Shown piece after piece: positions 30,001 to 33,000 of a stretch of 64,000 bases of DNA (position 1 is its first letter; the number at the start of each line of letters is the position of its first letter). Origin of the DNA: an uncultured Verrucomicrobiae bacterium (GTDB lineage: Bacteria; Verrucomicrobiota; Verrucomicrobiia; Chthoniobacterales; UBA10450). The stretch is taken from NCBI GenBank assembly GCA_963756875.1, contig CAVWPA010000003.1:960001-1024000 (forward strand), given 5' to 3'. Position numbers: made by a program.

Positions 30001-33000
30001 CGGCCGCGAAGGCGGATTGCACGGGTTGCTTCCCTATCTCAGGCTCAACTGAGTCCGATTAGCTGTCCGACGAGTCCGTGCCACTCTGGCCACCGGACCT
30101 GCTGTCAAAGTACAGCACCACAAACGCGATCCCGAGCAGCGGTCGAAGAATCCTTTGCAAAATTGCGAACCCAAAGCTGGAAAGCTGAAAGCCATGGACT
30201 TGGGAAGTGGCGTTGAGTTTTTGCAAAAGAGCCGGTAGGTCCTGCGGTGGTGTCTTGGAAAACTCATTAAAATAATGGCTCAGGGTCGACCACTCCGGGC
30301 CAAGCGTGATTGCCAGCACAATAACGGCCCAGATTGATGCAATTAATGCTCCGCGCCAGGACGGCCGTTGAAACCGCGGCAGACCGCGTCCACTGCGCGC
30401 GAGGTCCCTGCTTTCGCGCAATGAATCGACCACGCCCGCGCCTTCGATTACGGCAAATTGCTGCCAGAAGAGAACGTTGACGAAGAAACGACTAAACATC
30501 CACACTTGAACCCCCAGCAGCAGAAGCGCGAAAAGGATCAGGGGTATGGAAGAAGCGCTCACCACGCTTATCCCTGCGATAAAGAGGCCAAGCAGGGTCA
30601 GGAGCAAGAAGACGCCGTAGACGAAAACGCACAGCACCGCGACGCGCGGCCAAAATTTCACAGCTTCATTGAGCGCAGCCAGAAAACCCATCCGGCGTCC
30701 GGCGAGTGTTTCGGCGCTAAGAATTTGGATGGCCGCGATATAGATCGGCCACAGGACCATCGCGAGCACCAGCATGCAAAACGCGAACGCGCTCGCCAAA
30801 ACGCTGCGCAGGTCAACATCCACGTTCGGCGTTGTTTCGATCAATGTGCTGGCAAGCTGGCCGCACGCGGAAGGGAGAATCACGAGGAGCGCGAGGCAAA
30901 GAAACTGAAAGAATCTTTGTCGATAAATGCGAAACGTCTCGCCAAGAATTTGGAAGAGACTGCGCCGCTTCCAAGGTAACTCGAACGAATAAGCACTGGG
31001 ATGCGCAGGCTCGGACTGGATCGGCGGCGGTATTACCTCAAAGAGACCGGGAATGTCGGCTGCCGTGCTCCACTGATCGATGTTCGCCGGTCGCGCTTCA
31101 TTGGCCGGCAAGACGCGGCCTTCGGCTTTCCATTCGCGTAAAGTGGGCAGATCGGCCGGCCCGAAATCGCGCCCTTCCACTCGAATGATCCATTCCTCTA
31201 TCATGTATGGATCGATCATCCTGCAATCAGTAGCCGGAATCCAGTGCTGGATTTTGGACCAACAGCTTTGAAATCGCGGCAATCCGGTTCATCCTGTCTT
31301 AATGAAACTGCTTTTGATCGACGGCCATTATTATGTCTATCGATCGTTCTTTGCGATCCCGAATCTGTCGAACTCCAAAGGCGAGCCAACCAATGCGATT
31401 TTCGGATTCACGAAAACGCTGCGCCTCATGATCAAACATCTCCAGCCGGATCTCGGCGCCGTTTTATGGGATCAGGGCATGCCGCAGCGGCGCGTGGAGT
31501 TGCAGCCCGCCTATAAAGAGACGCGCAAAGAAATGCCGACGCCGATGGTCCCGCAGCTTGAGTTCATCCAGAAAACCCTGACGCGTCTGATTGGTTTTAA
31601 GAATATCGCGCTGCCGAACACGGAAGCGGACGATTTAATGGGCTGCTACGCGGTTGAGGCGTGCAAGCACAACATCGACGTGTTGCTTGCGACCAATGAC
31701 AAGGATTTATTCCAACTCGTTGGGCCTTGCGTTAAGGTTTATACGACCGCGAAGGCCGATCTTGCGTCCCCGAAGAACGCATTCGCTTTGCTCGGCCAGC
31801 CCGAGGTAACGACGAAATGGGGTGTTGCGCCGGAATTCATCGGCGATGTTCTGGCAATTAGCGGCGATCCGGTGGACAACATTCCCGGTGTGGGGATCGG
31901 CCGCAAAACGGCGGCGGCGTTGATCGCGGAATTTGGCGGCTTGGAGCCTTTGCTTGCCAATATCGACAAGGTGAAAAGTGAGAGGAACCGCGAAAAACTT
32001 ACCGCCGGCAGGGAGCAGATTCTGCAAAATCGTAAAATGGTTGCCCTCGATTGCCATCTGGACCTGCCCGTTCCCATCGACGATTTGCGGATCGAGCCGG
32101 ATTATCCCGCGCTGATCTCCGCTCTGGAAAAATGCGAGTTTAAGTCGCTTCTCCAGGAAGTGCGAGACGAAGCCGCGGCCAGATCGCAGCCTCAACTGGG
32201 CGTTTGAGCGGCGCCTTCCGGCGCGTGCCTTAATTAGCTCTCTCTCTGGGACTAACGTCGATACGAAAATTTCGCAAATAATTCGAACGTGCGCCACCCC
32301 CCGTTGTCAAACTCAACAGGTTAAGGCGATTCGGGTGGTGGCACGTTTCTGGTATTTGCTGTTTCTCCTCGGCGTGCGCCGCCCGAATCTTTTTTCTTTT
32401 TGAGTCGCCTTCATAAAATAAGGCGTGCGCCTGGCTGTGGCGCTCGGAATGACATGCAATTCCTGGCTGGCGGCTGGCGATAGATCGAAACTACGGGGTT
32501 GCGACTCGCCCCCTGGAGGTGTTTTCATAGGCTCAAGACATTATGGAAGGCGCCGGTAACTTGCTTGGAGTCCGAGGTTTCCTCATCGACACGCCGGACT
32601 TCGGCACGCTGAGGGGCCGGTCCAACGGTGCGCTAATCGTCGATAAGGGCCGAATTCTGGATGTCGGCGATTACGACGATCTTCGGCGAATTCACCAATC
32701 GGCGCAGGTCCAATGGATCGATCGCGGGCCGGTCGCCATTTTCCCGGGGTTGATCGATTGCCACACGCATTTGCCGCAGTATTCGGCGGTTGCGCGCGGT
32801 GAGAGCGAGCTGCTCCCCTGGTTGCGCCAACACATTTTTCCCGTGGAACGCGAGTTTACCGGACCAAAAGCGCGGGAAGAGGCGCCCCAGTTTTTTCATG
32901 AGCTGGCGCGCCATGGCACGACGACCTCCATGGTCTACGCCGCGATTTACGAAGACAGTTGCGAGGTTGGTTTTGAGGCCGCCCAAGCGAGCGGTTTGCG

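Follow-up and report, generated by a model that had tools for sequence, protein, structure and literature searches.

The window, by which we mean the whole 64,000-nucleotide stretch analysed here, carries genes for two DNA enzymes, a stand-alone 5' nuclease and a family B polymerase (Table 1). For the polymerase an alternative start lies near position 3995.

Table 1. Positions of the two genes and of their conserved or altered motifs in the window
Feature	Positions	Strand	Basis
Family B DNA polymerase (PolB), G3 (EpsilonN-like) type, ~755-766 aa	3962..6262	+	PF00136
Broken ExoI of PolB: E-V-L, residues 144-146 (D-I-E in relatives and archaeal PolB)	4391..4399	+	
Broken ExoIII of PolB: R324 in place of Tyr, A328 in place of Asp	4931..4945	+	
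Candidate C-terminal clamp-type motif of PolB, QAELL	6245..6259	+	tail comparison
Stand-alone 5'-3' exonuclease / flap endonuclease of Pol I type (301 aa)	31302..32207	+	PF02739 + PF01367
Candidate beta-clamp-type motif QPQLGV, residues 296-301 of the nuclease	32187..32204	+	tail comparison

The nuclease frame is intact, and in Pfam its product shows the domain pair of the Pol I 5' nuclease, with no further domain: 5_3_exonuc_N scores 145.6 bits and 5_3_exonuc 86.3 bits, both above their cut-offs. The top-scoring profiles are those for Pol I (264 bits; residues 2-292; profile length 889 positions), and the nearest solved structures are the N-domains of Taq and mycobacterial Pol I. The protein is nearer to these Pol I N-domains than to FenA, with E-values of 4e-41 against Taq and 4e-23 against FenA (6C33). 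Its AlphaFold2 model has a mean pLDDT of 96.7. A stop codon follows residue 301, and the solo form is also seen in relatives.

All nine carboxylates (D7, D57, E108, D110, D111, D133, D135, D189 and D192) are present in the protein. We take them to be equivalent, in E. coli numbering, to the residues of both metal sites, and make the same assumption for the basic arch residues. Acidic residues occupy all nine positions in 179 of 179 solo copies, with one exchange of D to E, which places the nuclease in the active, two-site class and not with ExoIX. To judge by this conservation the solo nuclease is very probably an active enzyme, and the data support the view that it substitutes for the 5' nuclease of Pol I.

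Several other identities were rejected. Against ExoIX (Xni) stand the retained D189 and D192 and a score of 111 bits with NF007017, where the cut-off is 261. Archaeal or eukaryotic FEN1 would have XPG-type N and I domains; the protein matches the two bacterial Pfam families only. Canonical Pol I (PolA1) can be set aside as there is no fusion to a family A polymerase, and the host genome, which is 87.6% complete, contains neither a match to PF00476 nor a Klenow remnant (best tblastn E-value 0.056).

The same genome, that of a soil bacterium, encodes DnaN, DnaE1 with a QVSLF motif, DnaE2 and DinB. The clamp pocket residues are kept in its DnaN, and presumably these are the residues to which clamp motifs bind. 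Two genes of the RNase HII family are present, of which the one for a 313-residue protein we infer to be RNase HIII; RNase HI gave no match. A canonical PolX is encoded as well, and had been missed by the finding of an earlier survey of this DNA.

Distribution of Pol I and of the solo nuclease

The survey's finding presented the absence of Pol I polymerase and the presence of a stand-alone nuclease as properties of one family. Within the family both hold true. PF00476 was found in 2 of 151 genomes, in both cases in a phage- or mobile-type protein of 470-600 aa without a 5' nuclease, and the solo nuclease in 148 of 151. These family tallies, and no other claim made here, include four genomes flagged as unpublished (G002, G007, G014 and G135). 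The possibility that Pol I is missing through an assembly gap was rejected, given that 149 of the 151 genomes lack PF00476 and the matches in the other two are not Pol I.

The trait is nevertheless not one of the family. Pol I loss is phylum-wide and extends to most of the phylum: a full-length Pol I occurs in 3 of 81 genomes of the order, 37 of 121 of the class and 23 of 78 from other classes, the last figure being scored by frame length, with PF00476 run on 10 of the 55 solo-nuclease genomes and giving two matches. Two genomes were dropped from the Pol I counts, G337 (cut by a contig end) and G407 (no match). Every one of 64 genomes with full Pol I has a single nuclease match. Both Pol I loss and the solo nuclease in Verrucomicrobia have moreover been published by Timinskas et al. 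(2026; PMC12926913, drawn on here, like most papers cited below, in part), and this half of the finding is therefore already known. Their survey covers nine Verrucomicrobia genomes, and Chthoniobacter and Xiphinematobacter were not found in the portion of its supplement used here. The solo FEN-like exonucleases that it describes from Pol I-less Tenericutes and Verrucomicrobia are of the same class as the present nuclease and likewise occur without Pol I; the sections used here neither give a clamp motif for them nor connect them with PolB or PolX.

On a DnaN tree of 29 genomes, the state of Pol I versus solo nuclease switches at least 4-5 times. In nuclease trees, solo nucleases from all three classes cluster together (SH-aLRT 94), the Pol I domains of the phylum make up a second group (100), and a tree constrained to unite the two sets was not rejected (p-AU 0.46). 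An origin of the solo nucleases by recent truncation of Pol I, over and over in each lineage, was rejected because solo nucleases and Pol I domains fall into separate groups. We infer that two old nuclease lineages, both often bearing a clamp handle, swap by differential loss or by transfer within the phylum. Of ten clusters of outside solo nucleases, the one with an organism name is from Kiritimatiellia.

The C-terminal tail of the nuclease

In the AlphaFold2 model the last helix of the nuclease ends at residue 295 and QPQLGV forms a terminal coil. The corresponding tail has the form Q-x-E-L-x-L in the family and, outside it across the phylum, usually QGELF or QGDLF. The version in our host ends in Val and meets the loose pattern but not the strict one, bearing out its earlier description as a weaker variant. 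Looking at the last 12 residues, the strict motif is present in 146 of 203 solo nucleases phylum-wide and the loose motif in 168 of 203, representing 48 of 58 families. By set, the strict tail is seen in 44/46 copies from the family, 50/67 from the rest of the order, 38/66 from the rest of the class and 14/24 in a further set, 23 of whose members come from other classes; the sample comprises 46 of the 148 family matches, nearly all those of the order and class, and 23 of the 55 from other classes. The tail is thus well established on family nucleases, as the survey had it, and is far more frequent outside the family than its figure of 5 of 15.

The motif is scarce elsewhere. Among 2006 roughly called genes of the host genome, 15 end in the strict form and 75 in the loose form within the last 12 residues, and in the body of the nuclease the motif occupies 25 of 3938 windows. 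Beside the survey's count of 8 in 2620 proteins stands the present one of 15 in 2006; both its observations, that such endings are few and that they belong mostly to DNA enzymes, hold. DinB is one of these proteins; others are, we presume, MutS, RuvB, a radical SAM protein and a DUF72-like protein.

Outside the family the motif is often preceded by a variable, Pro/Ala-rich linker. Across three classes these linkers differ greatly in length and sequence while the Gln and the Leu/Phe of the motif are fixed. The tail is missing from all sampled copies of 10 of the 58 families and from 5 of 7 copies in family f14, so it is not essential. A complex prediction for DnaN with residues 266-301 of the nuclease returned a score of 0.10 (mark 0.32) and counts neither way for binding. 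With a sequence of the Q-x-x-L-(x)-F/L type in an exposed, flexible segment conserved in homologues, the tail has what is expected of a beta-clamp motif, and we consider it a good candidate that probably binds DnaN, going by the motif.

Among full-length Pol I enzymes of the phylum, 16 of 46, from seven families, carry a similar motif, QxxLF, in the linker behind the nuclease domain, compared with 0 of 45 Pol I enzymes from outside. The motif is consequently not peculiar to the solo form and need not be a gain of the FEN1 kind. Archaeal and eukaryotic FEN1 has a C-terminal PCNA-binding motif and is a solo flap nuclease paired with a separate family B polymerase. The likening of the bacterial tail to that of FEN1 in the survey's finding thus remains a fair analogy of mechanism and loses its force as a statement of origin. 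The two systems also differ: our nuclease is built of Pol I-type domains and carries a motif of the beta-clamp type, DnaE serves as replicase, and half of the lineages can dispense with PolB. A parallel between bacterial FEN and FEN1 has also been drawn in PMC13082043.

Among bacteria, B. subtilis FenA (YpcP), S. aureus FEN and M. smegmatis FenA are stand-alone flap endonucleases with both metal sites, like the nuclease described here. They coexist with Pol I, whereas the present type of nuclease and Pol I are mutually exclusive. FenA takes away primers and acts together with DnaE in vitro (PMC10191290, PMC2650880, PMC13082043); the word 'clamp' occurs 0 times in the text of PMC10191290 as used here, which gives no clamp motif for FenA. 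Clamp motifs of the QxxL(x)F type, bound or predicted, have been reported in M. tuberculosis Pol I and actinobacterial PolA2 (bioRxiv 10.64898/2026.09.19.751633; PMC12926913), where they lie in or after the 3'-5' exonuclease domain, while here the motif follows the 5' nuclease. The actinobacterial family A motifs have been called unique to Actinobacteria, and that of Pol I unique to Mycobacteriales (bioRxiv 10.64898/2026.09.19.751633). No clamp motif on a bacterial solo FEN was found in the literature covered, which lay mostly outside subscription journals and also took in parts of PMC13220808, PMC12724664, PMC10201439, PMC9226535, PMC8204192 and PMC7739468.

The family B polymerase and its relation to Pol I

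PolB was found in 145 of the 151 family genomes, in agreement with the survey. The polymerase motifs A, B and C and the KxY thumb motif are intact, and an ESM Atlas search likewise identified the protein as family B; named relatives come from Chthoniobacterales and Candidatus Udaeobacter. Motif C reads EVDTDG, and E-x-D-T-D-G is found in all 81 rows of our motif table and in 18 copies from other classes. A Glu before motif C marks the EpsilonN-like G3 group (Kazlauskas et al. 2020, PMC7544198), and it is on this residue that our G3 assignment rests. The canonical three-domain build and the clamp motif are further points of likeness to that group, and close relatives of the family PolB are present in the 2020 data set. 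Two other identities were rejected: G2 (PolB2), as the D-T-D of motif C is kept and no neighbour within 1.5 kb is conserved across families, and E. coli Pol II (G1), as ExoII reads GH[ND] rather than GWN and NF004421 scores 75 bits against a cut-off of 570.

The survey had also reported that the family enzyme keeps its polymerase motifs and has lost exonuclease residues. This is confirmed by alignment to Pyrococcus PolB: the exonuclease motifs are broken in 37 of 37 family copies, D-I-E of ExoI having become E-V-L, and Tyr and Asp of ExoIII having become Arg and Ala or Gly. With the exonuclease intact in 0 of 37, we call the enzyme an exonuclease-dead derivative of a G3-type lineage. The companion claim that other families keep the exonuclease holds for 29 of 44 other copies in the class and fails for 15. 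Since the exonuclease is intact in 18 of 18 copies from other classes, and since the broken enzymes sit on several separate branches, loss of proofreading is derived and repeated, and the ancestral state, read from these sequences, is the exonuclease-intact one. Published G3 enzymes are described, in the parts of the literature used here, as keeping their exonuclease and as lacking an assigned function; throughout the present family and on several other branches the exonuclease is dead. A clamp-type tail is present on 37 of 37 family PolBs, again as previously noted, and on 17 of 44 others from the class and 6 of 18 from other classes, having been lost in more than half of non-family copies.

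Across 268 genomes, PolB is present in 0 of 64 with full Pol I compared with 107 of 204 without. It was said earlier never to accompany a family A polymerase. For full-length Pol I this stands, but three genomes (G091, G147 and G369) have PolB together with a family A enzyme other than Pol I. Family f62 offers a further case: PolB is missing there in exactly four genomes, all of genus g159, and the one tested, G364, has a Pol I polymerase without the nuclease domain, adjoining a ligase gene, and no PolB. The genome counts include kin, which are not independent, and an independent-pairs test of the exclusion on the 29 genomes, with few pairs available, gave 0 pairs in the same direction and 1-2 in the opposite one and was not significant. 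Mutual exclusion of PolB and full Pol I within the phylum is supported by the genome counts, and goes beyond the published description of G3. It may not hold outside the phylum, because all Chlorobi have a G3 PolB and are not among the Pol I-depleted lineages of PMC12926913. No report of G3 PolB excluding Pol I was found in the literature covered, although the supplement of PMC12926913 could already show the pattern for its nine Verrucomicrobia.

PolB is not required where Pol I is absent, a point made by the survey and upheld by the 97 of 204 Pol I-less genomes without it. In five of these that were tested there is no family B enzyme at all; three are single-contig genomes of 0.9, 2.3 and 3.8 Mb. 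The nuclease tail is equally frequent without PolB (53/85) and with it (49/72). The genes polB and that of the nuclease are unlinked, with no conserved neighbour beyond synteny at the family level. In one genome the two are 2 kb apart. An obligate pairing of nuclease and PolB is not supported. The survey's picture of two clamp-docked enzymes is supported in part, for the nuclease, its candidate clamp tail and the exclusion of Pol I.

Okazaki fragment maturation without Pol I

We propose that a member of the Verrucomicrobiota would rely on full Pol I or on a replacement, not on both. In the host studied here the solo nuclease would be recruited by its C-terminal motif to the beta clamp that stays behind on an Okazaki fragment once this is complete, and so docked would remove the RNA primer or flap, probably with the help of RNase HIII; a separate polymerase would resynthesise the patch and ligase would seal it. 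PolB, where present, would be a non-SOS housekeeping enzyme that has assumed the polymerase duties of Pol I, resynthesising short patches where Okazaki fragments meet and where repair leaves gaps. It would have lost proofreading like many Pol I enzymes, about half of whose orthologues are without it (PMC12926913). PolB would be accessory, and in its absence synthesis would fall to DnaE1 and possibly PolX. To this overall explanation, a clamp-recruited solo nuclease with a separate polymerase and PolB as accessory, we give a probability of about 0.5.

The distribution of PolB, its repeated loss of proofreading and the rarity of LexA-type boxes before its gene fit a housekeeping enzyme that duplicates what the polymerase half of Pol I does. 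Whether it replaces that half we regard, on the strength of its motifs and occurrence, as an evenly balanced question; that it is the main Okazaki gap filler appears doubtful. The many Pol I-less genomes without PolB (97/204), the independence of the nuclease tail from PolB and the presence of PolX in 5 of 5 genomes tested indicate that DnaE or PolX can fill gaps. Maturation by two clamp-docked solo enzymes is accordingly one of three candidate schemes, and a plausible one.

In the second scheme the clamp-docked nuclease would work with the replicative DnaE1 by primer displacement, PolB would serve in repair or recombination only, and its exclusion of Pol I would reflect redundancy or shared ancestry. 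Several results suit this possibility, which we hold with reserve: the 97 of 204 Pol I-less genomes without PolB and the five tested without any family B enzyme, the indifference of the nuclease tail to PolB (53/85 against 49/72), and the presence in the host of DnaE1 with its QVSLF motif. There is also a precedent, in that B. subtilis DnaE performs strand displacement and matures Okazaki substrates with FEN and without Pol I (PMC13082043). That enzyme is, however, DnaE3 in the scheme of PMC12926913, a different type of DnaE, and the DnaE1 reading by itself leaves unexplained why PolB is found in 145 of 151 family genomes and in 0 of 64 with Pol I, and why it is missing from G364 with its Klenow-only enzyme.

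In the third scheme PolX, a gap-filling polymerase that carries a PHP nuclease, would team up universally with the solo nuclease, much as Pol beta does with FEN1 in eukaryotes, and PolB would be secondary. A PolX match (PF14791) came from each of the Pol I-less genomes tested (5 of 5), one of them of 0.9 Mb and four with neither a family A nor a family B enzyme. In the host PolX the D-x-D, the third Asp and the PHP ligands are conserved, no LexA-type box precedes its gene, and X-family enzymes are rare among bacteria generally (PMC12926913). We nevertheless think this scheme improbable. The PolX count covers Pol I-less genomes only and the enzyme may be phylum-wide; the catalytic residues were read in the host alone, whose PolX has no clamp motif; and bacterial PolX has been described in base-excision and break repair. 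Verrucomicrobia terms were not found in the supplement of Prostova 2022 on PolX.

The remaining readings concern one component each. A proofreading-dead PolB could be a damage-inducible translesion polymerase, akin to E. coli Pol II or G2/PolB2 and unrelated to Pol I loss; its dead exonuclease and clamp motif would suit lesion bypass, and translesion synthesis is the role of those G2/B2 enzymes whose exonuclease is dead (PMC7544198). In the host genome a LexA-type box precedes lexA, imuA and imuB-C/dnaE2. We take the LexA motif to be TGTTC-N4-GAACA, the one validation here being that it stands ahead of lexA and the imu genes. Allowing at most one mismatch, such a box was found in 1 of 97 upstream regions of polB and 0 of 57 of the nuclease gene, and before none of the 37 family polB loci. 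DinB and DnaE2 are moreover already at hand in the host, motif C of PolB retains both Asp residues, unlike that of G2, the ancestral PolB was exonuclease-intact, and the exclusion of Pol I would go unexplained, all of which makes the translesion reading very unlikely. We find no more credible the notion that the nuclease is an ordinary solo FEN, of the kind of B. subtilis FenA, and its tail a relic of the Pol I linker that does not bind the clamp: a similar motif does occur in that linker, some lineages lack the tail and the host version is weak, but across three classes the motif is kept at the extreme end of very different linkers with Gln and Leu/Phe fixed, and the host proteins that share it are mostly DNA enzymes.

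A clamp-recruited solo nuclease with a separate polymerase, our preferred explanation, bears on the question of how Okazaki fragments mature without Pol I in free-living bacteria with full-size genomes. The 2026 survey reports that Pol I is absent and, in the sections used here, does not name what fills the gap (PMC12926913). The clamp-type tail and the exclusion between PolB and Pol I are the new and testable parts of the present results, and they raise testable ideas: clamp binding by FEN, G3 PolB as a substitute for the polymerase of Pol I, and PolX as an alternative. The results also suggest that the Pol I 5' nuclease is recruited to the clamp more widely than in the actinobacterial cases of 2026; if this is true, a third of the phylum's Pol I enzymes would have a clamp handle after the 5' nuclease. 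If PolB acts as proposed, this would be the first function for the uncharacterised G3 group. Tentatively, much of the Verrucomicrobiota, including the Chthoniobacterales that abound in soil, might mature their Okazaki fragments in an archaeal or eukaryotic style, with a clamp-docked FEN and PolB and with PolX as a helper resembling Pol beta, in a module that has been swapped with Pol I many times.

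Clamp-type motifs and nuclease domains among Pol I enzymes

Of 46 full-length Pol I enzymes from this phylum, 16 carry QxxLF in the linker that follows the 5' nuclease, and a related form, QLDL, is seen in family f29. Three full Pol I enzymes were found in the order (L064–L066, from genomes G152, G190 and G164). Since these group with the enzymes of f29, a family belonging to another order, their acquisition by transfer is suggested. In genome G364 the gene directly upstream of an NAD-dependent ligase encodes a Pol I polymerase that lacks the nuclease domain; this genome has a solo nuclease and no PolB.

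Genes with LexA-type boxes in the source genome

The imu mutasome of the source genome is in two pieces lying around 80 kb from each other, with imuB divided between them: lexA and imuA lie with its N-terminal part, dnaE2 with its C-terminal part. Each piece has its own LexA-type box, and these boxes are near-identical. Such a box is also seen upstream of two further genes, of which one presumably encodes a radical SAM protein, its product ending in the clamp-type motif QLDLF, and the other resembles a gene for endonuclease IV.

Feature coordinates (G000, source genome; other G numbers, other Verrucomicrobiota genomes; L numbers, loci taken from them)
Feature	Location	Strand	Remarks
imu mutasome, two pieces	window 59154–63650	-
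	G000 C3:939776–941838
Genes with upstream LexA-type box	G000 C2:105607–106773; C3:563941–564831
Second 5'-3' exonuclease	L179–L181, L178		274 aa
Pol I linker motif QxxLF	L310–L329, L352–L367, L296–L302		after 5' nuclease
Pol I polymerase without nuclease domain	L420 (G364:C23) 2949–5090	-
PolX-PHP, canonical	G000 C3:252468–254267	-	polymerase and PHP residues intact
Nuclease and PolB genes close together	L158 (G166:C9) 640–5751	same
polB beside presumed pseudopilin-like gene	L372–L388

Other nucleases, PolX and gene neighbourhoods

Many genomes of the family encode an additional, distant 5'-3' exonuclease with intact carboxylates; the clamp motif is absent from these proteins, and the source genome does not encode one. 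Nowhere in the source genome is there a match to RNase HI (PF00075 or PF13456); two RNase HII-family genes are present, a number also found in B. subtilis. In several genomes of other classes (seven loci) polB adjoins a gene presumed to encode a type II secretion pseudopilin-like protein. One genome from family f2 has its nuclease and PolB genes 2 kb apart with a single gene between them. Besides the PolX of the source genome, a PolX match is kept in a reduced genome of 0.9 Mb.
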